From positions 1,982,522 to 2,014,521 of the forward strand of contig NZ_CP092361.1 of assembly GCF_022354465.1 (NCBI RefSeq): a DNA stretch of 32,000 nucleotides, given 5' to 3'. Under the pieces are notes generated by a model. It was given only the letters and a program-made list of their open reading frames with translations, did not search any database and was not told the DNA's origin. Origin of the DNA: Wielerella bovis (GTDB lineage Bacteria > Pseudomonadota > Gammaproteobacteria > Burkholderiales > Neisseriaceae). This document shows positions 458-25,165 of the stretch, in pieces (position 1 is the first letter of the stretch; the number at the start of each line of letters is the position of its first letter). The position numbers and the translations under genes were made by a program.

Positions 458-1948
458 TTACTTACGCGCAGCAGCCACATCTTCTGGTTTCACTTCGCCA
501 CCTTTGTTGCCAAAAGTGTTCAACACATAAGTCAAAACATTCGCCACTTCTTCATCATTCAATGACAAAGCAGGCATCACACTATTGTATTTTTTACCAT
601 TAACGGTAATTTCACCACTCAAACCTTTCACAACCGCTTGGATACCGCGTTTATGGTCAGCATTCAAGTAATCAGATTCAGCCAATGGCGGGAACGCACC
701 TTCTACACCTTTACCTTCCACACCATGACAAGCCAAACAGTTAGCTTTGTACACTACTTCACCTGCTTTCACACGCTCTTCTTTGCTGCCTGCTTTGGGT
801 GTACCCGCTTCCACTTTGGCAGTTTCGCTGGCAGTTAAAGGCGCGGTTTGAATAGCCCCACCTTCGCTTTGATATACACCTTCGGTAATTTTTCCTGAGA
901 AAATGTCTTTATCTTCGGCACCTTCGGCTTTAATTTGACCCAAAGCACCTTTGTTAAACGTACGGAAAATAGAGTGGTCAACCAAATTGTATGTTCCTGG
1001 TACATCAATTTTCATTTCCACAATCGCCGCACCACCTGCAGGAACCAATGTGGTTTGTACATTTTTGTTGATTAAATCACCGCCTTCAACATAAACCTTG
1101 TCAAAAATTTCGCCAATCACATGGAATGAAGATACCAAATTCGGGCCACCATTACCCACAAATAAACGAACCGTTTCGCCTACATTGGCTTTCAAGGCAT
1201 TTTCGCCCGCAATAGAGCCTACGCTACCATTGAATACCACATAATCAGGCTGCTCTTTAATCGCTTTTTCCATATCAAATGGTTGTAAGCCTGCTTCGCC
1301 ATATTTGCCTTTGGTGTAGAAATCGCCTTGAACCACATAGTATTCGCGGTCCACTTTTGGCAAACCTTCTTTTGGCTCAACCAAAATCAAACCATACATA
1401 CCATTGGCAATGTGCATGCCCACAGGTGCAGTCGCACAATGGTAAATGTACAAACCTGGTTGTAAGGCTTTAAAGCTGAAATTGCTCACATGTCCTGGTG
1501 CGGTAAACGATGCTTCTGCACCACCCCCTGGACCTGTTGCCGCATGGAAGTCAATGTTGTGCGGCACAGTAGAATCTGAACGATTGGCAAATTCCACGTC
1601 CACAATATCGCCTTCACGCACACGAATCATTTGTCCAGGAACTTGACCGCCAAATGTCCAGAATTTGTATTCCACGCCATCTGCGATTTTCATCACTTTT
1701 TCAGCTACTTCAATTTTCACTTTCACACGCGCAGCATGGTCGCGATTCACAGGTGGTGGAGCTTCTGGTGCATACGTCATCACTGCATCAATCACAGGCA
1801 AATCCGCTGCTGGCGTATTATCCACTGCCACAGTCTGAGCAGGTGCAGAAGCTGTTTTAGCTGAATCAGATGGTGCAGGTTGCGGCTGTGAGCAAGCGGC
1901 AAAAACAAAAGTAGAAGCAATCAAAGCTGCTAATGTACGCATTTTCAT
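458..1948 (-). CDS. nirK: Copper-containing nitrite reductase (NirK/AniA): a lipoprotein with a fused C-terminal class I cytochrome c domain
   Basis: 496 aa. Signal peptide with lipobox (VFAAC). Type 2 Cu motif [10 protein letters not shown]. Type 1 Cu motif [19 protein letters not shown]-terminal CLACHG haem c motif with a downstream Met (NSVMPA). RBS AAGGAA lies upstream of the ATG. Confidence 0.93.
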
Positions 1949-2052
1949 GGTCGTGTTCCTTCACGAGAATAAAAAGTTATTGTGTCATTTTCAGGCTGTC
2001 TGAAAACATTTAATCATGTGCGCCATTATGTGTTAAGACTTTTTAACTTATC

Positions 2053-2066
2053 TTGACTTAAATCAA
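2053..2066. promoter_or_regulatory. FNR/CRP-family box TTGAC-N4-ATCAA upstream of nirK
   Basis: TTGACTTAAATCAA matches the FNR consensus TTGAT-N4-ATCAA at 9 of 10 positions. It lies about 105 bp upstream of the nirK start codon. Neisseria aniA is FNR-activated. Confidence 0.55.
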
Positions 2067-2210
2067 AAATTCATTAAATACTCATATTTTTTCAGCTAAA
2101 TAGCACATAATTTGGTTGTTTTGTGGTTAATTTGGTTTTCAGGCTGCCTTTTTGTTCATTGCATAAATAAATAAAATATTATTAATGTACAAATAATTAA
2201 TGAATAAATA

Positions 2211-2250
2211 AGGCAGCCTGAAAAATTATTTATCTTTTTTCAGGCTGCCT
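2211..2250. repeat. Inverted pair of DNA uptake sequences (AGGCAGCCTGAA ... TTCAGGCTGCCT); representative of many copies in the window
   Basis: Exact 12-mer at 2211-2222 and its reverse complement at 2239-2250. The same 12-mer recurs throughout the window on both strands. Confidence 0.85.
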
Positions 2251-2265
2251 ATGTTACAATTTTTA

Positions 2266-2286
2266 ACATTCATAATTTATGAATGT
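2266..2286. promoter_or_regulatory. Perfect 21-bp palindrome (10-1-10), a candidate repressor operator (NsrR/Rrf2-type is the obvious guess) just upstream of norB
   Basis: ACATTCATAA-T-TTATGAATGT ends 35 bp before the norB ATG. It is AT-rich with perfect dyad symmetry. Confidence 0.45.
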
Positions 2287-2320
2287 AATAAACCGCAAAA
2301 TTACTTTTTAGGAGCACAAA

Positions 2321-4567
2321 ATGGGGCAATATAAAAAGTTATGGTACACGTTAATCTGCGTGTTGGCTGTAACCTTTTCCTTACTCGGTTATTTGGGTGT
2401 TGAAGTTTATCGTCAAGCACCACCGTTTCCAGAAAAATTTGTTTCTGCTTCGGGCGCAACGATTATCACCAAAGATGACATCCACAAAGGTCAATCGGCG
2501 TGGCAATCTACGGGTGGTATGGAATTGGGCTCGGTGTTGGGACATGGTGCTTATCAGGCACCTGACTGGACGGCGGATTTCTTACACCGTGAATTGGTGG
2601 CTTGGTTGGATTTAACTGCGCAAGCTGAGCATAGCAAAAAATTTGATGAGCTGGATGTGGCGCAAAAAGCGGCAATCCAAGCGCGTTTGAAACAAGAATA
2701 TCGTGAACAAAGTGCGATGGACGAATCGGGTACGGTTAAATTGTCTGATACGCGCGTGAAAGCGATTGAGCAAACGGCACAATATTACATTGATTTGTAT
2801 GGCGACAAACCTGAATTGGATAAAACGCGCGAATCTTTTGCGATGAAAACCAATACTTTGCCCGATTTGCAAGCGCGTCAGCATTTAACCAAATTCTTTT
2901 TCTGGACAGCTTGGTCGGCATCGGCAAATCGTCCCAATAGTGTGGCGACTTACACCAATAACTGGCCGCATGAGCCTTTGATTGACAATAAGCCAACAAC
3001 TGAAAATTATATGTGGTCGTTTGCGTCTATCGTATTTTTGTTGGCTGGTGTAGGCTTTTTGGTATGGGGTTATCACTTTTTGCGCAAACAAGAAGTTGAA
3101 CCCGAAGTACCTGAATACGACCCATTAGCAAAAATTGTATTAACACCTTCTCAAAAAGCATTGTGGAAATATGCGGCTTTGACCGTTATTTTGTTTATTG
3201 TGCAAATTTTGTTGGGTGGCTTGGTGGCACACTACACCATTGAAGGTCAGCATTTTTATGGTATTGAATTATCTAAAATTCTGCCTTACTCTTTGGCGCG
3301 TACTTGGCACTTGCAATCTGCCTTGTTCTGGATTGCGACAGGTTTCTTAACTGCTGGTTTGTTTATTGCGCCTGTGTTGAATGGTGGTAAAGACCCCAAA
3401 TACCAAGCTTTGGGTGTGAATTTACTGTATGTTGCCTTGTTTATTGTAGTTGCAGGTTCTTATGCAGGTAACTTCACTTCTTTGGTGTTGAATAAACTTT
3501 CAGGCAGCGCTAATTTCTGGTTTGGTCATCAAGGCTATGAATATTTGGATTTGGGTCGTTTTTGGCAATTATTGCTGACTGTGGGTTTCTTGCTGTGGCT
3601 ATTTTTGATGTTACGTTGTGCTATTCCTGCTTTTAAGCAAGGTGGCGACAAAAACTTGTTGGCGATTTTCGTAGCATCTATCGTAGGTGTGGGTGCGTTC
3701 TATGCACCAGGCTTGTTCTATGGCGAACACACGACTTTGGCAGTGATGGAATACTGGCGTTGGTGGGTGGTGCATTTATGGGTAGAAGGCTTCTTTGAAG
3801 TATTTGCCACCGCTGCATTGGCGTTTATTTTCTACAACTTGGGTTTGGTAAGCTACAAATCTGCGACAACCGCATCTTTGGTTGCAGGTAGCCTCTTCTT
3901 GGTAGGCGGCGTTCCAGGAACATTCCACCACTTGTACTTCACAGGCACAACCACACCCGTAATGGCAGCAGGTGCATCATTCTCTGCGCTGGAAGTTGTC
4001 CCCTTGATTTTATTGGGTCATGAAGCTTATGAACATTGGTCTCATCAACACGCTGCACCTTGGATGAAACGTCTGCGCTGGCCTTTAATGTGTTTCGTAG
4101 CTGTAGCATTCTGGAATATGTTGGGTGCAGGTGTCTTTGGTTTCTTGATTAACCCACCGATTAGCCTGTACTACTTGCAAGGTTTGAATACCACCGCTGT
4201 ACACGCGCACGCAGCATTATTTGGCGTATATGGTTTCTTGGCATTAGGTTTTGTATTATTGGTCGGCTGTTACATCAAGCCTGACTTCACATACGATGCC
4301 AAACAAATGACATGGGGTTTTTGGTTGATGAATGCAGGTTTGATTGGCATGATTATTTCCAGCTTATTGCCCATCGGCATTTTCCAAGCCTATGCCTCTA
4401 TCACAGAAGGTTTATGGTATGCACGCAGCGAAGAGTTTATGCAACAAGGTCATTTGGAAATGTTGCGTTGGTTGCGCACAATTGCAGACTTTGTCTTCAT
4501 TGGTGGTGCGTGCTTATTCGCATGGCAAGTGATTCGTATGTCTATTAGTAAAGATAAAGCAGCATAA
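2321..4567 (+). CDS. norB: Quinol-dependent nitric oxide reductase (qNor, single-subunit NorB with N-terminal extension)
   Basis: 748 aa, the length typical of qNor. N-terminal TM helix plus a periplasmic extension, then 12 or more TM helices containing a conserved-histidine haem-copper-oxidase-like core (HHLYF, HAHAALFG). RBS AGGAG. It is divergent from nirK, as in Neisseria. Confidence 0.95.
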   Translation: MGQYKKLWYTLICVLAVTFSLLGYLGVEVYRQAPPFPEKFVSASGATIITKDDIHKGQSAWQSTGGMELGSVLGHGAYQAPDWTADFLHRELVAWLDLTAQAEHSKKFDELDVAQKAAIQARLKQEYREQSAMDESGTVKLSDTRVKAIEQTAQYYIDLYGDKPELDKTRESFAMKTNTLPDLQARQHLTKFFFWTAWSASANRPNSVATYTNNWPHEPLIDNKPTTENYMWSFASIVFLLAGVGFLVWGYHFLRKQEVEPEVPEYDPLAKIVLTPSQKALWKYAALTVILFIVQILLGGLVAHYTIEGQHFYGIELSKILPYSLARTWHLQSALFWIATGFLTAGLFIAPVLNGGKDPKYQALGVNLLYVALFIVVAGSYAGNFTSLVLNKLSGSANFWFGHQGYEYLDLGRFWQLLLTVGFLLWLFLMLRCAIPAFKQGGDKNLLAIFVASIVGVGAFYAPGLFYGEHTTLAVMEYWRWWVVHLWVEGFFEVFATAALAFIFYNLGLVSYKSATTASLVAGSLFLVGGVPGTFHHLYFTGTTTPVMAAGASFSALEVVPLILLGHEAYEHWSHQHAAPWMKRLRWPLMCFVAVAFWNMLGAGVFGFLINPPISLYYLQGLNTTAVHAHAALFGVYGFLALGFVLLVGCYIKPDFTYDAKQMTWGFWLMNAGLIGMIISSLLPIGIFQAYASITEGLWYARSEEFMQQGHLEMLRWLRTIADFVFIGGACLFAWQVIRMSISKDKAA

Positions 4568-7756: not shown

Positions 7757-8323
7757 ATGAATATTTCTCCCGTGCCTCTCAATAAGGCTTTTCGTTTACT
7801 CAATCATGGACCGACTGTGTTGGTGTCTGCGCATCACGATGGTGTAGACAATATTATGGCTGCGGCGTGGAGTAGTCCATTGGATTTTTCGCCTTGCCGT
7901 GTAACGGTTGTGTTGGATAAAAGTACTTTCACGCGCAGCTTGATTGAACAAAGTGGCTATTTTGCCCTGCAAATTCCTGTGCAATCACAAGCACGTTTGG
8001 TTTTGGAGATGGGAAATAGTCGTCATAAGAATCCTGAAAAAATTCAGAATGTTGAAATATTCCGCCAAACTGGGTTTGATGTACCATTGGTTTCTGGTTG
8101 TGCTGCGTGGTTGGTGTGCAAGGTATTACCTGAACCACATAATCAGCAAACTTATGATTTGTTTATTGGCGAAGTGCAAGGTGCTTGGGCGGATAACCGT
8201 GTATTCTATGATGGTCATTGGTTATTTAATACAGCCCCTGCGGAAATGCGCACTTTGCATTATGTATCGGGCGGTCAATTTTATGAGATTGGTGCAGGAT
8301 TAGATTTGGGTGATAGACGATGA
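7757..8323 (+). CDS. Flavin reductase-like (FMN-binding split-barrel) domain protein
   Basis: 188 aa. The pattern N-terminal LLNHGPTVLVSA...DNIMAAAWSSPL is typical of the flavin reductase domain family. Confidence 0.7.
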   Translation: MNISPVPLNKAFRLLNHGPTVLVSAHHDGVDNIMAAAWSSPLDFSPCRVTVVLDKSTFTRSLIEQSGYFALQIPVQSQARLVLEMGNSRHKNPEKIQNVEIFRQTGFDVPLVSGCAAWLVCKVLPEPHNQQTYDLFIGEVQGAWADNRVFYDGHWLFNTAPAEMRTLHYVSGGQFYEIGAGLDLGDRR

Positions 8324-8328
8324 TGTGT

Positions 8329-8372
8329 TTTCAGGCTGCCTTTTTTGAATCACAACAAAAGGCAGCCTGAAA
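8329..8372 (+). terminator. DUS-pair hairpin terminator after the flavin reductase gene
   Basis: TTTCAGGCTGCCTTTT / AAAAGGCAGCCTGAAA inverted repeat, immediately 3' of the stop codon. Confidence 0.6.
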
Positions 8373-8386
8373 AATATCATTTTGAA

Positions 8387-8423
8387 AAATGCAGCCTGAA
8401 AACATATTTTTCAGGCTGCATTT
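8387..8423 (-). terminator. Hairpin terminator after the MFS gene (minus strand)
   Basis: AAATGCAGCCTGAAAA / TTTTCAGGCTGCATTT 16-bp inverted repeat flanked by T/A runs, just 3' of the minus-strand stop at 8432. Confidence 0.6.
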
Positions 8424-8431
8424 CTTTTTAA

Positions 8432-9754
8432 TTACAATTTTTTATATGCGGTTTCTACGCTAAATCTAATTGCAATGAGTGAGATAATAGCTACAAGTAC
8501 CAAATACCAAGCAGGTGCTAAATCGCTGCCAGTATATTTAATCAACAATGTAGCAACCAATGGTGCTGTACCACCCAATAAAGCGTTACCCATATTGAAA
8601 CACAAGGCAAAACCACTAAATCGCAAATGCGTTGGGAAAATCTCGGTCAAGAATCCCGGTAATGTACCATCGTTCATTGCCAACATCACGCCAAATGCCA
8701 ATGTAACGAAAAGCGACATGATGAAATGATTGGTTTCCAACAGCATAAATAATGGCACGGAAAATAGGATAAATGCGATACAAGCCAGTCGCAACATGGT
8801 TTTGCGTCCATACAAATCAGACAAGTGTCCCATCATAAAAATAAAACCGATGTATGCTAATAAGCCTACGCTTGATGCCATGAATGAATGGGTTTCATCC
8901 ATACCTAATACGGTACTTAAATAAGTTGGCATATAGCTTAATGTTGTATAGAACGCTACAGCATTAAGTGCTACCACACCACACGCAATGAGCATTTCTT
9001 TGCGGTATTTAGTAAGTAAGATTTGAATAGGTAATTTGGTATTTTTTTGGTTCTTATCCAGTTTAGCTTCCATTTCGCGGTAAACAGGGCTATCTTCCAA
9101 GTGTAAACGAATATAGCGACCAATTAAGCCAAATGGACCTGCCAATAAAAATGGTAAACGCCAGCCCCATTCATGCAATGCATCATGTTCCATCACAGTG
9201 TGCAATAAAGCTGCAAGTAATGAGCCTAACAATAAGCCAGCAGCGGTACTCGCGGGCACTAAACTGGTATATAAACCACGTTTGCCTTTGGGGGCATATT
9301 CTGCCAAGAAAGCTGATGCACCTGCATATTCACCCGATGCAGAAAAACCCTGCACCATACGAACGAGTAATAACAAAATAGGTGCAGCGATACCAATTGA
9401 TGCGTAAGATGGAATAAGTGCGATACAGAAAGTGGAAATGGACATAATCATAATTGACCACGCGAGTGCTTCGCGCCGACCATAACGGTCACCCCAATGT
9501 CCCCAAACGATGCCACCAAATGGACGAATAATGAATGAAATAGCAAAAACAGCAAAAGTAGCAATCAAGCCTGTTTGCGGGTCTTCCGATGGAAAGAATA
9601 CTTTACTGATAATAGCTGCAAGATAACCATAAGCAGCATAGTCAAACCATTCCACAAAATTACCGATGAAGCTGGAAGTTGCTGCTTTACGAAGTGCTTG
9701 ACTTTCCTGTTCCGTGAGCTCCGGTACAGAATTATTTGTGTGTGTTGCTGACAT
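8432..9754 (-). CDS. MFS transporter, metabolite:H+ symporter (MHS; ProP/KgtP-like) family
   Basis: About 440 aa with 12 predicted TM segments. MHS signature GG.VWGHWGDRYGRR. I place the start at the ATG at 9754 (MSATH...), which has a GGAG RBS, rather than at the TTG used by the ORF track at 9766. Confidence 0.8.
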   Translation of the reverse strand: MSATHTNNSVPELTEQESQALRKAATSSFIGNFVEWFDYAAYGYLAAIISKVFFPSEDPQTGLIATFAVFAISFIIRPFGGIVWGHWGDRYGRREALAWSIMIMSISTFCIALIPSYASIGIAAPILLLLVRMVQGFSASGEYAGASAFLAEYAPKGKRGLYTSLVPASTAAGLLLGSLLAALLHTVMEHDALHEWGWRLPFLLAGPFGLIGRYIRLHLEDSPVYREMEAKLDKNQKNTKLPIQILLTKYRKEMLIACGVVALNAVAFYTTLSYMPTYLSTVLGMDETHSFMASSVGLLAYIGFIFMMGHLSDLYGRKTMLRLACIAFILFSVPLFMLLETNHFIMSLFVTLAFGVMLAMNDGTLPGFLTEIFPTHLRFSGFALCFNMGNALLGGTAPLVATLLIKYTGSDLAPAWYLVLVAIISLIAIRFSVETAYKKL

Positions 9755-10199
9755 AATAATCTCCAATCATGTTTTAAAGAAGACAGTTTCAAGTATAGAC
9801 TGATTAAAATATTTTTCTAGTCTTATTGTTCTAAATATTTCGTTTTTTTAGAATTTTGTTGCAAATTTGCGAAAGTTAAATAGAATTTCAATATATTTTC
9901 AAGGAAATGACATTCAGTATTATCTATAAAAATTAAGGGTAATTCTGATGGCAACTCTTTAATTTTACCAATTTGGAGTTATGATGGCTTTTAAAATTTG
10001 CGTAATCAGGGCAATACTAAAATCACAATAAAAACTATTATTTAATCAATATAGATATCAAAAATTGATTAATTTTTGCATAAAATAAAACAGTAAGTCA
10101 TTTTTATTTTTTCAGGCTGCCTATTCCTAACAACGCAACTTGAAAAAACATGACTACTTGCTGCTCTAATAAATACATCAAAATTTATTACAAATTATT

Positions 10200-10234
10200 G
10201 AAAGGTGGCTGAACAGATTCTCACACCACCTTTC
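10200..10234 (-). terminator. Hairpin 3' of the DMT transporter gene
   Basis: GAAAGGTGG / CCACCTTTC 9-bp stem, located 30 to 60 bp past the minus-strand stop. Confidence 0.45.
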
Positions 10235-10262
10235 AAATTATCATCAATTTTGAAACAAATTT

Positions 10263-11240
10263 TCAAGCTGCCGTTGCTGTTGGTGTATTATCATCAACTT
10301 CTTTATTTTGTTTACGAGAAAATAGACTAGCAATCACTTCGCTCATACCACCAACAATAATCAATGCACCACCGATAATTTGCGCCATACTCAATGGTTC
10401 GCCAAAAATCATCAAACCTACAAATACTGGTGCTACCACGCATTCCCAGTAAGATACGCAGGCAAATTCAGATGCTTTCAAATGGCGTGTTGCGATGGAA
10501 CAAGTACCTAATGCACCAAAACCACATACAAAACCGATTGCAACCCACCAAATCCAGTCAGAAGTACCCATATTAGCAATAGTTGGCTGAGTAATTGGGA
10601 ACAATGCCAAAATACCGATTAATGCAAACAAAAAATTCCAAAATGCTCGCGTGTCCCCTGGTACTTCTGTACGGAAACGGTTGAAGAACAAGAACAAACC
10701 GTAACCTACACCTGAATACAATGCTAACATATCGCCTTTGAAGGTTTCTTGTTTGAATTCGAAGCCCATTTTCAGGCTGCCTCCTTCAAAACTAACCAAA
10801 CCAACAATCAGCAACATACCAACAAATACACCGACCATTGAAGCCCATGTTGTTGCCCTCATTTTTTCTTTCAAGAAAATTACGGCAAGTAAAGTGGAAA
10901 TAATAGGGCCAACATAAATAAAGAACACTGCATTGGCAATAGATGTCAATTTAGTTGCCATCACATAAGCTGATAAACAGTTACCCATGAAAAAACCACT
11001 TAAAATCATTGGGAAAGACAGTTTAAATTCTTTTAAGGTATGCAACCTACCGTTGTACGCTAAAATAGCTAAAAATGCGAGTGTACCGCATAACATACGC
11101 GAAGAAGCGATAAAGTCGCCTTGCGCATTAATATTACGAGCAAAAAAGCCTACGAACCCCATCAAAGTGGCTGCAATAAATGCATTAATAAAGCCAACTT
11201 TTTTGTTGATGGGAGTGCTACTATTAGTTGAAGTACTCAT
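10263..11240 (-). CDS. EamA/DMT-superfamily transporter (paralog 1)
   Basis: About 325 aa with 10 hydrophobic segments in a 5+5 arrangement. Clearly paralogous to 12336..13274. Start placed at the ATG at 11240 (MSTSTNSS...), which has a GGAG RBS. Confidence 0.78.
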   Translation of the reverse strand: MSTSTNSSTPINKKVGFINAFIAATLMGFVGFFARNINAQGDFIASSRMLCGTLAFLAILAYNGRLHTLKEFKLSFPMILSGFFMGNCLSAYVMATKLTSIANAVFFIYVGPIISTLLAVIFLKEKMRATTWASMVGVFVGMLLIVGLVSFEGGSLKMGFEFKQETFKGDMLALYSGVGYGLFLFFNRFRTEVPGDTRAFWNFLFALIGILALFPITQPTIANMGTSDWIWWVAIGFVCGFGALGTCSIATRHLKASEFACVSYWECVVAPVFVGLMIFGEPLSMAQIIGGALIIVGGMSEVIASLFSRKQNKEVDDNTPTATAA

Positions 11241-11509
11241 AGTATATATCTCCAAGTTTTCTAAATTCTCCAAAAAATTCTATTCATTTGCTAAATTATT
11301 AATAATCGATACAGCCTCCTCTCCAGCATCAAAGCTTTGATATTTTTTTATAATGACTCATGATAATAATGCAGGATACATTTCAATACATACTCCAATC
11401 AAAATTTAATTTCATCAGATAACTACGCATTTCATGTATCCTGCAACAATCACTCAATTAAGATTACATACAAATTTATTTTTATATGTAAAACTTTCAA
11501 TGATAAATT

Positions 11510-12280
11510 TTAAGCAAACTCTGTTTGAATTGCTTTAACCATTTCACTCACTGCAACCTCAGTCAAAATACGACCTTTTTCTGCAGATGATGGTTTGGCG
11601 GAAGACAGGCAGCCTGAATGAGGTGTTCTTTCTGGAATTTCTGGCAACACATCATAATTAGTCAGTTGTGCTGGTGGATGATCCATCACTCTATCCATAT
11701 GTACCAAATCAGGGAAATGTTCTAACATTAATGAAGTTTCCAAAACCCCACCATGCTCAATATCCCAACCAGGGAAACCATCAGGATACAATCTTTCCAA
11801 AGCTTCAGGGGTAACAAAATCCCAATAAGATAAAATCAAAACTTTAGGTAGTTTATCTGAAATAGCACGAATATCTCTCAATGCCAATTCAACACCTTCG
11901 TACACGAATTGATAGTTTTCATAGTGTCCATTTACAAACACCATTTTTTTCAGTCCATGACGGAATAACTCATTTACTAAAGTTCTAGCCGATTCAATGA
12001 CATGGGCTGCACTAAATCCAAATGTTCCGACTATGTGTGTTCCACCTCCTGAACGAGGTTGAGATTTATAACCAAAGGCAATTGTTGGCGCAACCAATCC
12101 ATCAATTTTTTCAGCTACTAATTCAGCCATTTTGGTAGATAAAATAGTATCTACACCCAAAGGCATATGCGGACCATGTTGCTCAACAGCACCTACTGGT
12201 ACAAGCATTACTGTTTCAGCATTAGAAATTTTTTCACGATAACTAAATGCGTCAATTCGCATAATATTTACTTCTGCCAT
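11510..12280 (-). CDS. Creatininase-family amidohydrolase, very close at motif level to true creatinine amidohydrolase
   Basis: 256 aa. Metal-ligand motifs VEQHGPHMPLGVD and NGHYEN, plus DIEHGG. Long stretches (YGYKSQ..SGGG.H..GT, LSYWDFV, LYPDGFPGWDIEHGGV.ETSLML, DRV.DHPPA, LSSAK) match what I recall of Pseudomonas putida creatininase. RBS GAGG. Confidence 0.82.
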   Translation of the reverse strand: MAEVNIMRIDAFSYREKISNAETVMLVPVGAVEQHGPHMPLGVDTILSTKMAELVAEKIDGLVAPTIAFGYKSQPRSGGGTHIVGTFGFSAAHVIESARTLVNELFRHGLKKMVFVNGHYENYQFVYEGVELALRDIRAISDKLPKVLILSYWDFVTPEALERLYPDGFPGWDIEHGGVLETSLMLEHFPDLVHMDRVMDHPPAQLTNYDVLPEIPERTPHSGCLSSAKPSSAEKGRILTEVAVSEMVKAIQTEFA

Positions 12281-12335
12281 GATGCACCTCTTACTAATGA
12301 TGTATGTTAATAATAATTATTTAGAAATAATTCAA

Positions 12336-13274
12336 TTATTTATTTTCTAACGATTCAGATTGTTTAGGTTTTTTCATTGCAAAGAAGATTTGAGAAACAC
12401 CGCCCAAAATAATCAAAGCACCACCTAACATTTGCATTCCTGTAATAGGTTCAGCAAACAACGCAATCCCCAATAATGTTGCCATAATTGTTTCTTGGTA
12501 TGAAATAGTTGCCAATTCGCTTGCCAGTAAGATTTTAGAAGCTACTGTTAAGAAAAAGAAAGCACCAAAACCAGTTACTGTCGCAGCAATAATCAAAACT
12601 ATCCAACCACGACTAGTCATTTGGGACAAATCAGGTTGCATAAAGAGCAAAATAATACCAATAGTACAAATAGCAAATAAGAAGTTAAAGAAAGAACGAA
12701 CATCTGAATCAACATCGCCACGATAACGGCTAAAGAACAAGAACAAGCCATAAGCAACGCCAGAACCCAAAGCAATTAAATTACCTTTCATATACTTAGG
12801 ATCTAGACTTAAACTCATTTCAATACCATTTTCACCGTTGCTAATAATACCAATGATTAATAAACAACCTATGAATACAGCTACTAATGATGCTGCAGTC
12901 AATTTAGTAAATGGTTCTTTTAAAAAGATTGTGGCTAGTAATGTTGAATAAATCGGCCCTGTGTAAATTAAAAATGCCGCATTAGATAATGTCGTCAACT
13001 GAGTTGACCAAACATATAGACCAGAAAGCAAGCCTAAAAATATACCGCTTAAAAAGATTGTAGGGGAAAACTTAATTTGTTTGACTTTATATAATTTGCC
13101 AGCAACGGCAAAAATTAAAATCATTCCAATAAAACCAACAAAACTACGAGTAAAAGAAATAAACATACCTGGTGCTTCAATATACCTGGCGAATGCACCG
13201 ATACCACCCATCAAACTTGAAGACAAAAACATGAAACCAAAGCCTTTAAGTTTTTCGCGACTTGTCGTATCCAT
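12336..13274 (-). CDS. EamA/DMT-superfamily transporter (paralog 2)
   Basis: About 312 aa with a 10-TM pattern. Start placed at the ATG at 13274 (MDTTSREK...), which has an AGGAG RBS. Confidence 0.78.
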   Translation of the reverse strand: MDTTSREKLKGFGFMFLSSSLMGGIGAFARYIEAPGMFISFTRSFVGFIGMILIFAVAGKLYKVKQIKFSPTIFLSGIFLGLLSGLYVWSTQLTTLSNAAFLIYTGPIYSTLLATIFLKEPFTKLTAASLVAVFIGCLLIIGIISNGENGIEMSLSLDPKYMKGNLIALGSGVAYGLFLFFSRYRGDVDSDVRSFFNFLFAICTIGIILLFMQPDLSQMTSRGWIVLIIAATVTGFGAFFFLTVASKILLASELATISYQETIMATLLGIALFAEPITGMQMLGGALIILGGVSQIFFAMKKPKQSESLENK

Positions 13275-13361
13275 CTTAAGACTCCTAAATTTTAAGTTAA
13301 AATAAGTCATGAACAGCTAAACCCATCCATGACTTATCTCTAGCTATTACAATTTAAACAA

Positions 13362-14492
13362 TTAAACTAAAGTAGCATCGTTGAAATTGCGATTTGGGAA
13401 GTAATCTTCACAACCACCTTCACGATATACGTCAGCAGTAGCGCAGTGTAATGCACCACCGAATGGGTAAGCATCGCGGAATGGAACTGGGATTACGTTC
13501 ATGCCCAATTTGTCCATTTGTTCCATTTGGTTCACTTCTGAAGCTTCGCAAATCACAGTTTTGTGATCCAATACCAAGCAGTTCATAGACAACCATACTG
13601 AGCTGTAGCACAGTGGAGGAGGTTCTTTGTGAGCAGGCATAGCTGCATCAACAATTTCCCAACCGTTTTTCTCGAAGATTGCACGTTGTTCTTGTGGCAA
13701 ACGACGAGTTGGGTTGTTAATAATCAAACCTGGACGCAGAGGAACAAATGTTGCGTCAATGTGGATTGGATATGGGTCACCTGGGAAGTTAACTGCGTGA
13801 ACAGTCAAGTTTGGATAGTAGCGTTTGAACCATTCCATTGCAGTGCGGTTAGTAGTCAAACCATGTTGAATGAACAAGTCTTTACCTACACGCATAATGT
13901 CTGCAGCGTCCCACATTGGTTCGTGTTCAGTTGTCACGAAGTCTTTGTTTGCTGTACGAACCAAACGTTCTTCCAATGAAATTTTTTCATCGTAGTAGTT
14001 GTGTTTGTATGATTTGTCAGTCAAACGTGGACGAGGAGCTTGAGTCCATTTGAATTCTGGGTCTTCGTCAAAATATTTTTTCATCAGAGGCCAGAAAGCC
14101 AGATATTCAAAGTAACGGCAACGGAATGAGTTAGCAGAAGCCATAATTTCATTACCGATTGTCAACAGAATATCACGAGGAGGCATACAAGTCATCATAG
14201 ATTGAGTACGGAAATCTGGAGTGATGACTGGTTGGTTCCATTGCAATGGAGTTGGGCGGTCAACTTTAACGCCACGATCTTCCAATACTTTAGCCAAATA
14301 GTTCAGTTGAGCATTTGCTTTTTCAACTGTTTCTAATGGGCGAGGACCCCACATGCCGCGCATTTCGCTGTCTACAGGCACTTTTTCAGAAGTAGCTGGT
14401 TCTTCATCAGGGATTACGCTGTGATCTGCCACACCAACGATAATGTGTTTTAGAGGGTCAAAGTCGTTCCAAGAGTTAACGATTTTTGCCAT
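13362..14492 (-). CDS. Amidinotransferase of the L-arginine:glycine amidinotransferase (AGAT/GATM, StrB1, CyrA) family
   Basis: 376 aa. It aligns by eye along its length with vertebrate AGAT (W.DFDPL..IIVG, TPDF, MPRDILL.IGNEI, R.RYFEY, FVTTE.EP.WDAAD, IHIDATF, WLSMN.LVLD, GGALHCAT). The catalytic Asp (WDAAD), His (HIDATF) and Cys (LHCAT) are all present. Strong RBS AAGGAG. Confidence 0.85.
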   Translation of the reverse strand: MAKIVNSWNDFDPLKHIIVGVADHSVIPDEEPATSEKVPVDSEMRGMWGPRPLETVEKANAQLNYLAKVLEDRGVKVDRPTPLQWNQPVITPDFRTQSMMTCMPPRDILLTIGNEIMASANSFRCRYFEYLAFWPLMKKYFDEDPEFKWTQAPRPRLTDKSYKHNYYDEKISLEERLVRTANKDFVTTEHEPMWDAADIMRVGKDLFIQHGLTTNRTAMEWFKRYYPNLTVHAVNFPGDPYPIHIDATFVPLRPGLIINNPTRRLPQEQRAIFEKNGWEIVDAAMPAHKEPPPLCYSSVWLSMNCLVLDHKTVICEASEVNQMEQMDKLGMNVIPVPFRDAYPFGGALHCATADVYREGGCEDYFPNRNFNDATLV

Positions 14493-14519
14493 GATAATTC
14501 TCCTTACAGCACTACATTC

Positions 14520-14655
14520 AAAAGACTAACACTGGTAAACTCACAGGTTAGCAACGGGTTAAAATCTACGAAACGTGATAACTACAATTTTTGTAATCAT
14601 CGAGATTAAACAACATTGCTATCGTTTTTTCTCTCTCGCTCCGTATCTCTTGATG
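14520..14655 (-). promoter_or_regulatory. Structured 5' leader of the amidinotransferase operon, with a terminator-like hairpin plus U-tract just before the RBS
   Basis: On the minus strand there is a long-range helix (14645-14655 pairing with 14598-14606) and a small hairpin (14583-14595). A 9-bp stem (GCUAACCUG pairing with CAG-U-GUUAGU, 14525-14552) is followed by CUUUU and then AAGGAG-N8-AUG. Confidence 0.3.
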
Positions 14656-15400
14656 CGCATTTTAACGACTTGCCGTTTTTTTAAAAGTCAAAAAAGAATA
14701 AGATTTATGTCAAAAAAATACGAAGCCCTACAATTCAATCAAAAATCAAATTAACCATTTGTTTATATGTAAAAATATTTTTCAATCAAGCAGCCTGAAA
14801 AATATTTTTCAAGATATTTTTTATACTATTTGTAGCATTTTGATAGTTGTATTTTGATGCTTTTCAGGCTGCCTTTTATTGGCAACCAATGTTTCCAAAA
14901 TATTTCCGTTATTCAAGACACAATTTTATGTGGAATTTAGCTTACTATCTACTAAAAATCACATTTCGCCATGGTTAAATGATGAATATTACATTCTTCA
15001 AATAGATGACCTAAAAATGCAAATCCCGAATATTTCATCTCCATTATCTATTTTAATATTTCAGACCACACACTCCAATAAAGATAATGATCAATTTATA
15101 CAAAATCTTATTTAATAATAAAAAATTGAATGACAGTATCCGCCTACACCTATTTCAGAGACTTTAATTAAAAGATACCTAAAATGATGGATATTAAACT
15201 CCTCAAATAAGCAGCCTGAAAACACACAATACCCAAATATTTTTCACAATTTTTGTTTCAAATACTTCAAGCCAAACTTTTGCAAAACTCAAAATAACAG
15301 GTCGGATACAAGTATCCGATAGTTGTTACAAGTTTTCAGGCAGCCTGAAAGACTTTTTGCGATACAATACGCCCCCTAAATTTTCAACATTACATAATTT

Positions 15401-18305: not shown

Positions 18306-19749
18306 ATGACCACTCTAGATTTCCAAAACTACGAATACTTCACCCACGCCGTAACCGTAGGCGGAAAAATCCTAGAAGTTCCCTTACGCAAAGGACAAAA
18401 AGACAGCGCATTCATAGACGCACTCACATTCACAATCAAGAAACAAACCATAGACATCAACAAAGGACTGTGCATCACAGATTTAGAGTATGTCGCCGCG
18501 TATAGCGAAATCCTACAAGACATTTTCGGTTTCGGCGTAAGCGAAAAAGCAGGTAAAGGACGTTATTTCTACAACGCATTCTACCGACTCGGCACCAAAG
18601 AAACCGAATATGGGACACTTCACATCGGCGGACAAAGAGAAACCATCTTAATTGAATTAACAGGTATAGTCGTAGAAGTGAAAAAGCAGTACAAGGCGAC
18701 AACGTCCGCCGTGTGTGAAAACACATCAGGACGTTGGCAACGCTGTAATGATTTTTCAATTCTGCGACTATACAGGCTGCCAAGCAGCAAAACCAGGTTG
18801 GGAACAAAGACTATACCAATTCCTAACCCAAGCCGTCCGTCCAAGAATTACACGCATAGACTGCGCTCATGACTTCTTCAATGGCGAATACAGCCCAGAA
18901 CAAGCCATGTTAGACCACAACAAAGGTTTATTCAACCGTGCAAACAAACGCCCAAAAAGCGAATGCAAAGGCACCGCCTGGCGAGAAGAAGACTACACAG
19001 GCAAAACATTCTACATCGGGAGACGTGGCAGTTCCAAACTCGTCCGCGTTTACGAAAAAGGCAGACAACTAGGCGACAAAGACAGCCAATGGACACGCTT
19101 TGAAATAGAGTTCAGAAACAAAGACTGCGTTATTCCACTAGAAATTCTAACCGCACCAGGCGAATTTCTCACAGGAGCCTACCCAGTCGGAGAAACCCTG
19201 TTTACAACAACAGCCCAATCCATAGAAGCAGCGACCGAAAAAGTGAACATCACTTTTGACAGCAAACTAGCCCACGCCAAAAACCAAGTCGGGCGCATGG
19301 TCCGCTTCCTAAATGATATTGGCTGGACACCCGAACAAATCATAGAAGCCCTAATTGGCGAAGAAGACAAATACCCAAAAGGCTTAAACCCAGAAGAATA
19401 CGACTGCGACAAAGCTCAAGTTCACTATCTCACAACAGAAGACATTGACTACACCGAATTGCCAACAGACGAACTAGACGAAGTCATCAAAATAGAAACC
19501 GCCATCAGAATCTTTGACCAAGACACCCAATTAAAAACCGATTGGCAAAAACAACTGATAGCCGAATTTCCAGACGACTTCAAACGCTGGCTAGACATCT
19601 GGAAACAGCAGCAATACTACGGCATTAACCACCATTTACGCGAAGCCGAAAATTTAAGAAGAGAACAAGAAAGCCATCTTGACTATCTCTATTCCAAATA
19701 CGGCACATTTTTTCCAACCCAAACTAAAAGGACAACATCATGTCATTAA
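18306..19749 (+). pseudogene. Filamentous-phage replication initiation protein (Rep_trans family) interrupted by a MITE
   Basis: Two overlapping ORFs (18306..18872 and 18715..19749) sit in different frames. Deleting 106 bp (18667-18772) joins them in frame to give ...LIELTGTGCQAAKPGWEQ..., about 445 aa. Rep_trans-like motifs: RIDCAHDF, FYIGRRGSSKLVRVYEKG, WTRFEIEFR. Confidence 0.85.
18665..18772. mobile_element. Correia-like MITE, subfamily B, copy 1, inserted in the phage rep gene
   Basis: TATAGTCGTAGAAG...CTGCGACTATA, 108 bp including the duplicated TA. It differs at only 2 positions from the reverse complement of 30754-30861. Confidence 0.88.
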
Positions 19750-20069
19750 ATTTTAACGAACAAACCCCACTCATCTACCAAAAGAAAATTGTCATGGGCG
19801 TATCCCGCTTCAAAGGCGAAGTAGATAAAAACCAAATTGACAACTGCAACGTCTTAATCGCAGCCCCATTGAGCAGCGACAAAGATAACGCGAAAGGCTT
19901 TGGCGTAGCCAAAGTCCCCTTTGGCAAAAGCGACAACTTCAACAAATTTCTCGGTGTAACGTTCCCCTGCGAAATGGAGTTAGCCTTCGTTACAGAAACC
20001 AACGCATCAGGCAAACAACGCGAAGTTCTGAAAGACATTCGCCTGATTGCTCCACCAGCAAAAGGATAA
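19740..20069 (+). CDS. Hypothetical phage protein. Its position suggests the ssDNA-binding (gV-like) protein.
   Basis: 109 aa. Its start overlaps the rep stop (ATGTCATTAA), which implies translational coupling. The functional guess rests on synteny only. Confidence 0.5.
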   Translation: MSLNFNEQTPLIYQKKIVMGVSRFKGEVDKNQIDNCNVLIAAPLSSDKDNAKGFGVAKVPFGKSDNFNKFLGVTFPCEMELAFVTETNASGKQREVLKDIRLIAPPAKG

Positions 20070-20073
20070 CCCT

Positions 20074-20262
20074 ATGCAAATCAAATACATCGTGCAGGAT
20101 TTGGAAACGTGCGAATTCCTGTATCCCTCGCCCGATGGCGATGTAGGGCAAACGCCCTACATAAAACAGGCAGGGCATTTTGAAGAAATGCAAGATGCCC
20201 TAGATGCAGGGGAAGATTTAGGCGCACCCTTTACCATTTTTACTTTTTACCTACCTAAATAG
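20074..20262 (+). CDS. Hypothetical small acidic phage protein (62 aa)
   Basis: ATG at 20074 preceded by AAAGGA. I prefer this start to the track start at 20047, which overlaps the previous gene. Confidence 0.45.
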   Translation: MQIKYIVQDLETCEFLYPSPDGDVGQTPYIKQAGHFEEMQDALDAGEDLGAPFTIFTFYLPK

Positions 20263-20338
20263 GCAGCCTGAAAAGCAAAAAGCAAATTCAGCCCAAATCA
20301 AATTCAATCCAAAACCCAAACCCAATTTACTGCGTGCC

Positions 20339-20390
20339 GGGCGGTTGCGCAGATAAACCCCTTGATAACCGCCCATTTTCCATTTTTTTA
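20339..20390 (+). terminator. Hairpin plus T-run between the replication module and the coat gene
   Basis: GGGCGGTT (20339-20346) pairs with AACCGCCC (20367-20374), followed by ATTTTCCATTTTTTT. Confidence 0.45.
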
Positions 20391-20414
20391 ACTTAATTTT
20401 TAAGGAGTTCAATC

Positions 20415-20630
20415 ATGAACATCAAACAAAAAATGACTCGTGTAGCAGTCGTATCCACAGCAGCATTGGCAACCGCAAGCGCACAAGCTGGCACAATCGC
20501 AGATGCAGTAACTCAAGGCACAACAGGCTTGGTTGAAGACTTGGGGGCAACAGGCGCGATTGTAATCGGCATTGTCGTAGTCGGCGTTGGCATCGGCGCA
20601 GCAATCCGTATGTTACGCAAAGGCGGTTAA
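20415..20630 (+). CDS. Inovirus major coat protein (gVIII-like)
   Basis: 71 aa. Signal peptide ending AQA. Acidic mature N-terminus, a Gly/Ala/Val/Ile-rich TM helix, and a basic C-terminus (RMLRKGG). Strong AAGGAG RBS. Confidence 0.78.
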   Translation: MNIKQKMTRVAVVSTAALATASAQAGTIADAVTQGTTGLVEDLGATGAIVIGIVVVGVGIGAAIRMLRKGG

Positions 20631-20647
20631 TCTTAAGGAGCTACCAT

Positions 20648-20959
20648 ATGAAAGGTTATAGAGTAGGCGGTCAATGCTTCGCCACTTCGGAGGAAGCGTC
20701 CAATTACAAAATGAGTATGGTAGTTCCGACCATTACGGCGGACGGGGAATTAAAAACCCCCGTCTACCAAAATGGTAACTGGTATTACGGCACTCAAAAA
20801 ATAGTTCTCACATTTCCAGAATGCGACCCAAAAGAATCTTTTATAGAAGGTTTACAAGTTGGGACTATGTTAATCGGACTATTTTTACTTACTTTCGGCA
20901 TTAAAACGGCAATAAGAATGCTGTATGCAATCAATCAAGACACAAATAGCGAGTGTTAA
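20648..20959 (+). CDS. Hypothetical phage membrane protein (103 aa, C-terminal TM helix)
   Basis: AAGGAG RBS, and the gene is tightly packed after the coat gene. Confidence 0.55.
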   Translation: MKGYRVGGQCFATSEEASNYKMSMVVPTITADGELKTPVYQNGNWYYGTQKIVLTFPECDPKESFIEGLQVGTMLIGLFLLTFGIKTAIRMLYAINQDTNSEC

Positions 20960-20961
20960 AA

Positions 20962-21468
20962 ATGGAGACAGGTAAACCCAAACCAGGCATGGAAATGATA
21001 GGCGGTGGTGGTTCAAGTGGTGGTGGTTCAAGTGGTGGCGGTTCAAGCGGAGCGAAAACTCAAACAGTAGTAGGTCAAGCCATTCAAAAATCCACAGAAG
21101 GATTAAACACCGATTTATATGTTGTTTCAGGAATTTTAATTCTCATAACCGTGATAATTGTTGGTGTAGCAGCAGTCATCAAAATGATGAGAGAAGCCGA
21201 AATGGGAGAACTGCGTATAGACATGACCGATGAACAATTTGCCGATGAAATGTTTAGCTATCAAGACGGAGAAGAACATAGCCATTTTACCGATGAATTT
21301 GTTCAAGACTTCTTTGATGAAACAAACGAGCATACCGCTAGCACCTTTGCGAGCGAAATGTTTACAGATGAGCCACCAGATGACCCGATAGACCAATTTG
21401 TAACAGACATGTTTACAGAAACTGACACAACAGAAAGCGAATTGGAGTCACAAGATGAGAAAGGATAA
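20962..21468 (+). CDS. Hypothetical phage membrane protein with a Gly/Ser-rich N-terminus, one TM helix and an acidic repeat tail
   Basis: METGKPKPG..GGGGSSGGGSSGGGSSG.. is followed by LYVVSGILILITVIIVGVAAVI. The tail carries repeated DEMF/DEFV/SEMF/TDMF motifs. The ATG at 20962 is 3 nt after the previous stop. Confidence 0.55.
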   Translation: METGKPKPGMEMIGGGGSSGGGSSGGGSSGAKTQTVVGQAIQKSTEGLNTDLYVVSGILILITVIIVGVAAVIKMMREAEMGELRIDMTDEQFADEMFSYQDGEEHSHFTDEFVQDFFDETNEHTASTFASEMFTDEPPDDPIDQFVTDMFTETDTTESELESQDEKG

Positions 21469-21470
21469 AA

Positions 21471-21539
21471 ATGAACGACACAATCATGTTTTTACTCGGG
21501 CTGCTGTTCACAGCACCGTTTTTACTCTTATTTTTTTAA
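21471..21539 (+). CDS. Possible 22-aa hydrophobic peptide (gVII/gIX-like small virion protein)
   Basis: AAAGGATAAAAATG, then MNDTIMFLLGLLFTAPFLLLFF*. It is too short for the ORF track. The call rests on position and hydrophobicity only. Confidence 0.3.
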   Translation: MNDTIMFLLGLLFTAPFLLLFF

Positions 21540-21561
21540 TGGGCTGGATATGGCAACAATA

Positions 21562-21585
21562 AAAGGCAGCCTGAAAGCTGCCTTT
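21562..21585. terminator. Bidirectional hairpin between convergent genes
   Basis: AAAGGCAGC-CTGAAA-GCTGCCTTT, a 9-bp stem that contains a DUS. Confidence 0.55.
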
Positions 21586-21589
21586 GTGA

Positions 21590-21874
21590 TTATTCTTGCT
21601 GAATTTTGATTTTTTGATATTGAATTTTTAAAGCATTAACTGCCGTTAATAGTGCAGCATCAAACAGATGTGGATTATCTAAAATGGGTTGAAGTTGTTC
21701 CATGCTTGCCATAACACCTAAATAAACAGGTTTATTGGTTTGCATTTCTTCAAAGGTCATTTTGTCTATTTCAATGTGTGTTGAGCAGCTGAGAATTCCT
21801 AAATTTTCTTTAAAAGTGCCACTCCATAAATTCACACTTGGGCTGTATGTGAAATCTTTAATGTCGTAATCCAT
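21590..21874 (-). CDS. Opposite-strand cargo (moron) gene inside the prophage; 94-aa hypothetical cytoplasmic protein
   Basis: The ATG at 21874 (MDYDIKDFTYSP...) has a GGAG RBS 8 nt upstream, so I prefer it to the track start at 21955. It is the only minus-strand ORF in the phage with an RBS, and it is AT-rich. Confidence 0.55.
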   Translation of the reverse strand: MDYDIKDFTYSPSVNLWSGTFKENLGILSCSTHIEIDKMTFEEMQTNKPVYLGVMASMEQLQPILDNPHLFDAALLTAVNALKIQYQKIKIQQE

Positions 21875-21905
21875 TTGTTTATCTCCGTGAAAGTTGAAAT
21901 ATATC

Positions 21906-23561: not shown

Positions 23562-23563
23562 AA

Positions 23564-23851
23564 ATGAAAGGTTCTATCGGTTTATTACTCACATCGGTTT
23601 TTACCACGCTAGCCGGCAAAATCATGGCTGCTCTAGGCTTGAGCATCATAACCTACACAGGTGTAACCGCGTTGCAACAACAAATGATTTCCCGTATTTC
23701 CAGCGGATTAGATGACATTCCATCAGCTTCATTACAAATCTTCTATTTAGCTGGCGGCGGTGTCGCTTTAAACTGGTTAATGTCTGCCATTTCCTTTTCA
23801 TTGGGATTCAAAGCAGTTTCTAAACTAGGGACAGTATTCTCAAATAAATAA
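23564..23851 (+). CDS. Small phage membrane protein (gVI-like position)
   Basis: 95 aa from the ATG at 23564, which is 3 nt after the previous stop. Two to three hydrophobic segments. Confidence 0.55.
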   Translation: MKGSIGLLLTSVFTTLAGKIMAALGLSIITYTGVTALQQQMISRISSGLDDIPSASLQIFYLAGGGVALNWLMSAISFSLGFKAVSKLGTVFSNK

Positions 23852-23902
23852 TTAATAAACAATGATTTATTAATTAAATTGAATTATATTTAAGGGGTTA
23901 AT

Positions 23903-25054: not shown

Positions 25055-25064
25055 CTTCATTATA

Positions 25065-25125: not shown

Positions 25126-25165
25126 CACCAACCGTAGGGCGGTAGTCGTTGAATTTCACAAACAT

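Follow-up and report, generated by a model that had tools for sequence, protein, structure and literature searches.

Clinicians use creatinine as the main marker of kidney function; the microbiota degrades part of it, and only two bacterial routes for its breakdown are textbook knowledge. A block of five genes in Wielerella bovis raises the question of what a creatininase does when its neighbors are an amidinotransferase of the arginine:glycine amidinotransferase (AGAT) type and three transporters. The block was analyzed within a stretch of 32,000 nucleotides of contig NZ_CP092361.1, which we call the window. Its genes lie at 8432-14492, all on the minus strand and in the same orientation. In transcription order, they encode the AGAT-like enzyme, a drug/metabolite transporter (DMT2), the creatininase, a second such transporter (DMT1) and a transporter of the major facilitator superfamily (MFS). 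An earlier note on this DNA, made from the letters alone, had given the same five co-oriented minus-strand genes, and the listing of open reading frames (ORFs) agrees with its coordinates. The motifs that it quoted are found in the translations: the AGAT-like protein contains WDAAD, HIDATF and LHCAT, and the creatininase contains EQHGPH, VD, NGHYEN and EHGG. Its statement that no creatinine-pathway partner gene or regulator accompanies the block also holds, as Pfam annotation of the 32-kb window yields no creatinase, creatinine deaminase, hydantoinase, sarcosine oxidase or transcription regulator.

The answer that we favor, with a probability of roughly 55%, is that the block is a horizontally mobile uptake-and-salvage module for creatinine and related guanidino acids from the host, in which the amidino group of creatine (or guanidinoacetate) would be passed to ornithine to give arginine. 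The earlier note had already proposed uptake plus salvage. Comparative genomics supports that idea and appears to extend it, by a link to the arginine deiminase (ADI) pathway and by the displacement of creatinase. The features seen directly are the gene families, the intact active sites, a gene order conserved in distant bacteria, the embedding in arc operons, and the mutual exclusion of AGAT and creatinase beside creatininase.

The Amidinotransferase

In a phmmer search of the PDB, the amidinotransferase matched human AGAT (1jdw/1jdx) over residues 5-365 with an E-value of 3e-78 and 41% identity. The matches to HsvA (8e-58), SxtG (1e-56) and StrB1 (3e-43) were weaker, which places the enzyme closest to AGAT; the earlier note had left the choice between AGAT-like and StrB1/CyrA-like to profile searches and phylogeny. 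The fold and catalytic mechanism are shared with CyrA, SxtG, StrB1, AmtA and HsvA, of which HsvA, SxtG and StrB1 are detectable homologues, more distant than AGAT. The clusters of these enzymes differ in having biosynthesis neighbors, none of which is present in the window or in related loci. Pfam and NCBIfam models gave no match to the AGAT-like protein even at E=10, and NCBI labels the family "serine/threonine protein kinase" in Wielerella, Neisseria, Cutibacterium acnes, Slackia and many metagenome-assembled genomes (MAGs). This looks like a systematic annotation gap, and the kinase label helps explain why the family has been overlooked.

Homology with mammalian AGAT (GATM) is full-length and includes the active site. 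Human D170, D254, H303, D305, R322, S354, S355 and C407 correspond to D107, D195, H244, D246, R263, S297, S298 and C350, and these eight catalytic or ligand residues are invariant in 83 of 83 family members. Present among them are the Cys407-His303-Asp254 triad (C350, H244, D195) and the guanidinium-binding Asp170 and Asp305 (D107, D246). Also present are Arg322, Ser354 and Ser355 (R263, S297, S298), through which arginine or ornithine is held by its alpha-carboxylate and alpha-amino groups. Because the equivalents of these last three residues are invariant throughout the family, the arginine/ornithine substrate pair appears to be retained. Conservation of the clade is very high, at 74-91% identity across phyla. 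The nearest database protein comes from W. bovis (99% identity). Homologues in Neisseria animaloris and Neisseria sp. share 91% with the enzyme of the window, those in Actinomycetaceae (Austwickia, Actinomyces, Schaalia) 90%, those in Cutibacterium, Slackia and Gordonibacter about 84%, and those in marine Granulosicoccaceae and Poriferihabitaceae 74-76%.

AGAT enzymes work by reversible ping-pong transamidination and are known to accept guanidinoacetate as a donor. A member of their superfamily, DDAH, releases a secondary amine when it acts on a substituted guanidine, and the release of sarcosine is chemically plausible for that reason. The role proposed for the AGAT-like enzyme is to transfer the amidino group of creatine or guanidinoacetate to L-ornithine, which would yield L-arginine.

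The Creatininase

The creatininase scores 329.6 bits against the equivalog model TIGR04448, which has a cut-off of 235. The sister models score lower and fall below their own cut-offs (MftE, 80.6 bits against 172; IolN, 74.4 bits against 245). Pfam PF02633 matches with E=2.2e-51, and the Pseudomonas putida creatininase 1j2t with E=8e-80 and 50% identity. The metal ligands of the P. putida enzyme (E34, H36, D45, H120, E183) and its substrate or catalytic residues (S78, Y121, E122, W154, D155, W174, H178) are all kept. With 12 of 12 residues and these model scores, the protein belongs to the clade of true creatinine amidohydrolases, as the earlier note had suspected from the motifs.

The same 12 residues are kept in all 27 AGAT-linked or DMT2-linked homologues, with one Y121F exception. 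In the tree, AGAT-linked creatininases form clades apart from the creatinase-linked ones, and the P. putida enzyme falls with the creatinase-linked group. Specificity residues that would split the two groups were sought and rejected, as none reaches 85% consensus. Because the active sites are identical, both groups most likely make creatine, and the role proposed for the enzyme of the window is the conversion of creatinine to creatine.

Partners of Creatininase

A metagenome scan with a creatininase alignment provided 80 further loci, for 87 creatininase loci overall. AGAT accompanies creatininase in 17 of them and creatinase in another 17, and no locus has both (the creatinase representative matches PDB entry 1chm at 4.9e-169). 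AGAT lies upstream of every creatininase that is at least 57% identical to that of the window and whose upstream sequence covers 3 kb or more, mostly together with arc genes. Through this mutual exclusion, AGAT occupies the genomic position of the creatine-consuming enzyme.

The comparison with the classical creatininase-creatinase-sarcosine oxidase pathway of P. putida and Arthrobacter makes the same point. The first enzyme is the same, with identical metal and substrate residues, and a BCCT transporter gene follows creatininase in relatives of both pathway types. The difference lies in what comes after: neither the window nor any of the 17 AGAT-linked loci contains creatinase, AGAT being found in its place, and sarcosine oxidase is likewise missing from the window. 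A DMT gene beside creatininase is specific to the AGAT-linked type. It is the DMT2-type gene, which lies directly upstream of creatininase in nearly all AGAT-linked loci (L059 has no DMT2) and is absent from the creatinase-linked ones. Whereas the classical pathway releases urea, the amidino group would here be kept as arginine.

The two enzymes might be coupled through guanidinoacetate instead, with the creatininase homologue opening glycocyamidine (or another cyclic amidine) and AGAT taking guanidinoacetate as the donor. The earlier note had named this option. The P. putida creatininase does act on glycocyamidine, more slowly than on creatinine, and guanidinoacetate is a classical AGAT donor. 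Such a route nevertheless seems improbable to us, as host glycocyamidine is scarce relative to creatinine and the active site of AGAT-linked creatininases is unchanged from that of creatinase-linked ones. The exclusion of AGAT and creatinase beside creatininase also points to creatine as the shared intermediate.

Creatininase loci further indicate how the block may have been assembled. L021 (3652-4776, 8456-9580) and L059 (747-1871, 5159-6283) carry two AGAT copies each, which encode 100% identical proteins. One copy heads a DMT2-creatininase cassette (without DMT2 in L059) and the other heads a DMT1/MFS cassette. This suggests recent cassette duplication or recombination, with AGAT as the shared module head. 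Because the duplicates are identical, a single AGAT enzyme would serve both inputs. A specialized creatine-type AGAT paralogue beside creatininase was considered and rejected, as the AGATs in that position are scattered in the tree and form no clade. A partial second AGAT copy is also present in L019, at 14042-14524.

The DMT2-creatininase pair is an optional cassette placed after AGAT, and in the window both cassettes are fused behind one AGAT. The most economical reading is that the AGAT-DMT-MFS core handles a linear guanidino acid (creatine and/or guanidinoacetate), and that DMT2-creatininase, with or without BCCT or NCS1, extends the module to creatinine. DMT2 and creatininase of the window are 64-71% identical to the Actinomycetota and metagenome types versus 57-60% to the N. 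animaloris type, and they cluster with L021, L028 and L083-L097, not with L011 and L163. AGAT, DMT1 and MFS of the window are nearest to N. animaloris (91, 73 and 74%, respectively). This pattern points to independent acquisition or replacement of the DMT2-creatininase cassette at the same position.

Gene Neighborhoods of AGAT and the ADI Operon

A scan of a genome collection found at least 598 species genomes with a close AGAT relative, and the best 80 loci were examined. Host-type AGAT loci numbered 57, of which 47 were assessable downstream and 48 upstream. A DMT and/or MFS orthologue lies directly downstream on the same strand in 44 of the 47, usually with a TetR regulator next, and an MFS orthologue (48-74% identity) is downstream in 40. 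On the other side, arcA/arcB/arcC are found directly upstream of AGAT on the same strand in 22 of the 48 (identities confirmed with Pfam). The usual order in host-associated Actinomycetota is arcA-arcB-arcC-AGAT-DMT-MFS-tetR. Upstream of arcA the genes vary, and no further transporter recurs there in 13 loci inspected, so the DMT and MFS proteins look like the operon's own transporters. The carriers are overwhelmingly host-associated, from oral, skin, gut and urogenital sites.

Among the best 80 loci, creatininase (CRN) occurs in six, each time inside the AGAT neighborhood. One of these, from Neisseria sp. (L011), has the five genes as in the window. The others read arcABC-AGAT-DMT1-DMT2-CRN-BCCT (L018), arcABC-AGAT-DMT2-CRN-BCCT followed by a second AGAT-DMT1 (L021), arcABC-AGAT-DMT2-CRN-NCS1 (L028), DMT2-CRN-BCCT-AGAT (L030) and AGAT-CRN-BCCT-AGAT-MFS (L059). 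N. animaloris has the identical five-gene set at another chromosomal site, beside an opp operon and an AraC regulator, and because of this different location the block appears to be mobile within the Neisseriaceae. The AraC-family regulator (L163, 15997-16854) is convergent and just downstream of the block, and has no counterpart in the Wielerella window. The AGAT-DMT2-creatininase arrangement recurs in Actinomycetaceae, Micrococcales, Propioniciclava, Flaviflexus and Eggerthellaceae, and in 11 of 80 metagenome contigs. Conservation of the amidinotransferase-DMT-creatininase-DMT neighborhood, which the earlier note had proposed to examine, is therefore strong.

The position of AGAT directly downstream of arcA-arcB-arcC in 22 of 48 loci, together with the 17, 17 and 0 loci of the creatininase comparison, argues for ornithine as the acceptor and arginine as the product, as had been proposed. 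Urine is the richest natural source of creatinine. In Actinobaculum massiliense, ArcA, ArcB, ArcC and AGAT (01647-01650) all exceeded their in vitro abundance more than 8-fold in urinary catheter biofilms (PMC6314084); the authors suggested a polyketide link. The locus is one of our set of AGAT loci (L031).

The opposite direction has to be weighed here. AGAT would make guanidinoacetate and ornithine from arginine and glycine, and the DMT proteins would export guanidinoacetate, or glycocyamidine formed by a reversible creatininase, as a signal, toxin or host modulator. Animal AGAT and CyrA work physiologically in this direction, and DMT/EamA proteins are often exporters. An Amycolatopsis AGAT also yields guanidinoacetate in E. 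coli (PMC12093341). We give such a biosynthetic role little chance, because a co-transcribed catabolic arcABC would compete for arginine with no energy gain, and the enzyme that AGAT replaces, creatinase, is catabolic. The ProP-like H+ symporter suggests uptake, and induction of the operon occurs in urine, which is rich in guanidino compounds. No methyltransferase, polyketide synthase (PKS) or nonribosomal peptide synthetase (NRPS) gene is annotated near the block or in related loci. A secondary-metabolite cluster was rejected on similar grounds, as no PKS, NRPS, aminocyclitol or toxin genes were found in the window or among the recurring neighbors of 160 related loci. The concern that the block might be part of a characterized biosynthetic cluster can be set aside: the larger cluster in relatives is catabolic, namely the ADI pathway, and no description of it was found.

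Transporters and the Proposed Pathway

Both DMT proteins contain two EamA domains in about 300 residues, with PF00892 matching two stretches of each (2.2e-26 for DMT2 and 5.2e-24 for DMT1). The DMT located after AGAT shares 72-73% identity with DMT1 in Neisseria sp. and Craterilacuibacter, and 31-49% in Actinomycetota. The MFS protein matches MFS_1 (7.8e-41) and Sugar_tr (3.1e-40) in Pfam, and its top NCBIfam models, both of which it matches below their cut-offs, are TIGR00883 for the metabolite:H+ symporter (MHS) subfamily at 410.4 bits (cut-off 443.45) and ProP at 383.6 bits (cut-off 544). The proposed roles are uptake of zwitterionic guanidino acids (creatine or guanidinoacetate) by H+ symport for the MFS protein, and export of sarcosine or import of creatinine for DMT2. 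DMT1, as part of the conserved AGAT-DMT-MFS core, is proposed to export the de-amidinated product (sarcosine or glycine). The AGAT module of Eggerthellaceae has a further conserved region, about 190 residues long and situated between its DMT and MFS genes, either as a separate ORF (L033, 12564-13130) or fused to the C-terminus of the DMT protein (L016, 11410-13185; L045, 11379-13124).

The salvage module would operate as follows. Creatinine would enter through DMT2 or the MFS protein in Wielerella, and through a BCCT or NCS1 permease as well in relatives, and the creatininase would open it to creatine. Preformed creatine or guanidinoacetate would be taken up by the ProP-like symporter. Opposite to the mammalian direction, the AGAT-like enzyme would load the amidino group onto its active-site cysteine and then pass it to L-ornithine as the acceptor, giving L-arginine and sarcosine (or glycine). 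The DMT proteins would export the de-amidinated product, for which no degradation genes are adjacent. In carriers of arcABC (Actinomyces, Schaalia, Actinobaculum, Propioniciclava and others), arginine would be converted to citrulline and then to ornithine and carbamoyl phosphate, with the formation of ATP. The regenerated ornithine would act as a catalytic carrier of the amidino group, and the full cycle would yield ATP, CO2 and two NH3, with sarcosine or glycine excreted. No arc genes are adjacent in the Wielerella window, and the arginine made there may cover needs for the amino acid or for nitrogen, or may enter an ADI pathway encoded elsewhere. N. animaloris is described as arginine dihydrolase positive.

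The complete cycle of creatininase, reverse AGAT and ADI, with ornithine as the carrier and ATP as the gain, would be a third, undescribed route of creatinine and creatine breakdown in host-associated bacteria. We hold this wider claim tentatively, at somewhat short of even odds. Its carriers would include Actinomyces, Schaalia, Actinobaculum, Cutibacterium, Eggerthellaceae, Slackia, N. animaloris and Wielerella.

Observations that Weigh against Salvage

Several observations count against this account. The lid of the enzyme differs from that of human AGAT, with Y241 in place of N300, I243 in place of M302 and a one-residue insertion (G238), and the bacterial clade keeps all three without variation. 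Use of creatine as a donor is not known for mammalian AGAT, and the N-methyl group of creatine may not fit the AGAT site. No assay of this bacterial AGAT clade was found in the literature searched. The Amycolatopsis enzyme, which makes guanidinoacetate from arginine and glycine in E. coli (PMC12093341), is an example of a bacterial AGAT that is able to work synthetically. The partner genes are also not constant. arcA, arcB and arcC are absent within the 32-kb window, and the gut-type DMT2-creatininase-MFS loci L136-L162 have no AGAT within 10 kb, except L143. Marine relatives, with 74-76% identity and the same active site, have none of the partner genes, so the AGAT-type enzyme is not tied to a creatinine-salvage pathway everywhere. 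In a marine Pseudomonadota MAG (L077), a creatinase homologue (8245-9450, minus strand) is divergent from AGAT (10001-11098). It is 57% identical to the creatinase representative, with Creatinase_N and M24 domains, and this is the only locus in which the two families are adjacent.

Some of these points would be expected if the enzymes were adjacent and functionally independent. Creatininase and DMT2 would then supply creatine, for example as a compatible solute, or feed enzymes elsewhere. AGAT would leave creatine untouched and act on guanidinoacetate, 4-guanidinobutyrate or homoarginine brought in by the MFS protein. Independence is consistent with the gut-type loci, with mammalian AGAT, which is not known to accept creatine, and with the AGAT-DMT-MFS core that lacks creatininase in most loci. 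It also fits the appearance of DMT2-creatininase as a separate acquisition, with GC content at third codon positions (GC3) of 0.23-0.27 and, unlike AGAT, DMT1 and MFS, closer to Actinomycetota than to N. animaloris. We still regard it as unlikely, for the cassette has been inserted repeatedly inside the AGAT operon, between AGAT and the transporters, in at least four bacterial orders. The DMT2-creatininase cassette is never accompanied by creatinase, and no alternative creatine-consuming enzyme is found in the AGAT-cassette loci.

Relation to Known Systems and Significance

Transfer of the creatine amidino group to ornithine would share its proposed logic with the ADI (arcABC) and agmatine deiminase systems, in which a guanidino compound is converted to a carbamoyl compound and carbamate kinase then gives ATP and ammonia. 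It would differ in that the substrate is not deiminated directly, as the amidino group would first be moved to ornithine, a recycled carrier. Tissierella creatinophila ferments creatinine anaerobically via creatinine deiminase, N-methylhydantoinase and N-carbamoylsarcosine amidase. That fermentation is alike in the anaerobic use of creatinine as host waste, ending in sarcosine, ammonia and CO2. The enzymes are wholly different, and their genes are neither in the window nor among the annotated recurring neighbor families. Energy comes from sarcosine reduction in the Tissierella-type route, and carbamoyl phosphate would serve here.

The earlier note had taken a creatininase-amidinotransferase coupling to be undescribed. 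The full-text literature, in which most subscription journals lie outside coverage so that absence is not proof, contained no description of AGAT-creatininase or AGAT-ADI coupling. The enzymes come from known families, and the pathway that they appear to form would be a new form of both creatinine degradation and ADI-type energy conservation.

If the pathway is real, it would include a new enzyme activity, creatine:L-ornithine amidinotransferase. It would link creatinine to the ADI pathway, a pathway of central importance for energy metabolism and acid tolerance in oral, skin, gut and urogenital Actinomycetota. Fermentation of the guanidino group would be open to anaerobes, with creatinine, creatine or guanidinoacetate as its source, and a microbial share in extra-renal creatinine clearance would become plausible. 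The pathway would explain why at least 598 species genomes carry a highly conserved AGAT homologue, why it is located in ADI operons and why it is strongly induced in urinary biofilms. The widespread misannotation as a serine/threonine protein kinase would also be corrected.

The Block and Its Surroundings in the Window

The features of the block are collected in Table 1.

Table 1. Features of the five-gene block and its borders (window coordinates)
Feature	Coordinates	Strand	Remarks
AGAT-type amidinotransferase	13362..14492	minus	376 aa; heads the block
DMT2, EamA/DMT transporter	12336..13310	minus	324 aa
Creatininase (creatinine amidohydrolase)	11510..12280	minus	256 aa
DMT1, EamA/DMT transporter	10263..11273	minus	336 aa
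MFS transporter, ProP-like	8432..9766	minus	444 aa; ends the block
Promoter-like block and ~170-nt 5' leader of the AGAT gene	14493..14740	minus	promoter-like part conserved with Neisseria sp. L011
Two hairpins of inverted DNA-uptake-sequence copies	8328..8423		located where the MFS and flavin reductase genes converge

Comparison with orthologues indicates that the true starts of the transporters probably lie inside the mechanical ORFs, at an ATG near 13274 for DMT2, 11240 for DMT1 and 9754 for MFS. Hidden pseudogenes (creatinase, regulator) in the gaps of 270, 500 and 900 nt were considered and rejected, as blastx against all neighbor proteins gave no match. By Pfam, the genes that flank the block encode a flavin reductase and a CcoI/FixI-type P-type ATPase at one border and ParE at the other.

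The earlier note had described the block as more AT-rich than its flanks. This is upheld for the block as a whole, which has 37.5% GC versus 42.6% in the remainder of the window, and GC3 is lowest in creatininase (0.23) and DMT2 (0.27). It does not extend to every gene, as the GC3 of AGAT, DMT1 and MFS (0.34-0.38) is no lower than that of the AniA-like and flavin reductase genes (0.35). The AT-rich island is genuine yet modest.

Upstream of AGAT, the promoter-like form conserved with Neisseria sp. L011 reads TTTTTTGAyA...TATTCTTTT...TTTTAAAAAAA...CGTTArAAT. The 168-nt leader proper (14493-14660) has a folding energy of -44.7 kcal/mol, with z=-3.84 versus shuffled controls, and the fold region is not conserved in L011. 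A riboswitch or other known RNA in or upstream of the block was rejected, as Rfam gave nothing at gathering thresholds and its E-value mode returned chance-level eukaryotic miRNA and snoRNA matches on the DNA-uptake-sequence hairpins.

At the other end of the block, the inverted repeat 8328-8344/8357-8373 is 100% complementary, and the hairpin at 8387-8423 resembles a terminator, with a T-run after its 16 pairs. These hairpins are likely a bidirectional terminator at the block end. The 12-mer AGGCAGCCTGAA, which we take to be the Kingella-type (King-type) dialect of the DNA uptake sequence, occurs as itself or its complement in 33 exact copies in 32 kb, for example at 7532/7568, 8330/8360, 10111, 10771, 11607, 14863 and 15338. 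Many copies form terminator-like inverted pairs, and two lie inside the DMT1 and creatininase coding sequences.

Elsewhere, the window carries denitrification genes at 458-4567, comprising an AniA-like multicopper oxidase with a C-terminal cytochrome c domain (458-1948, minus strand) and a divergent quinol-type NorB (2321-4567). A MatE gene and QueC were also recognized with Pfam. A filamentous (Nf/MDA-like) prophage region spans 18306-26383, with a Rep_trans replication initiator (18715-19749), a TspB-like protein (21894-23561), DUF2523 (23495-23851) and Zot (23903-25054), followed by an IS110-family transposase (25370-26383).

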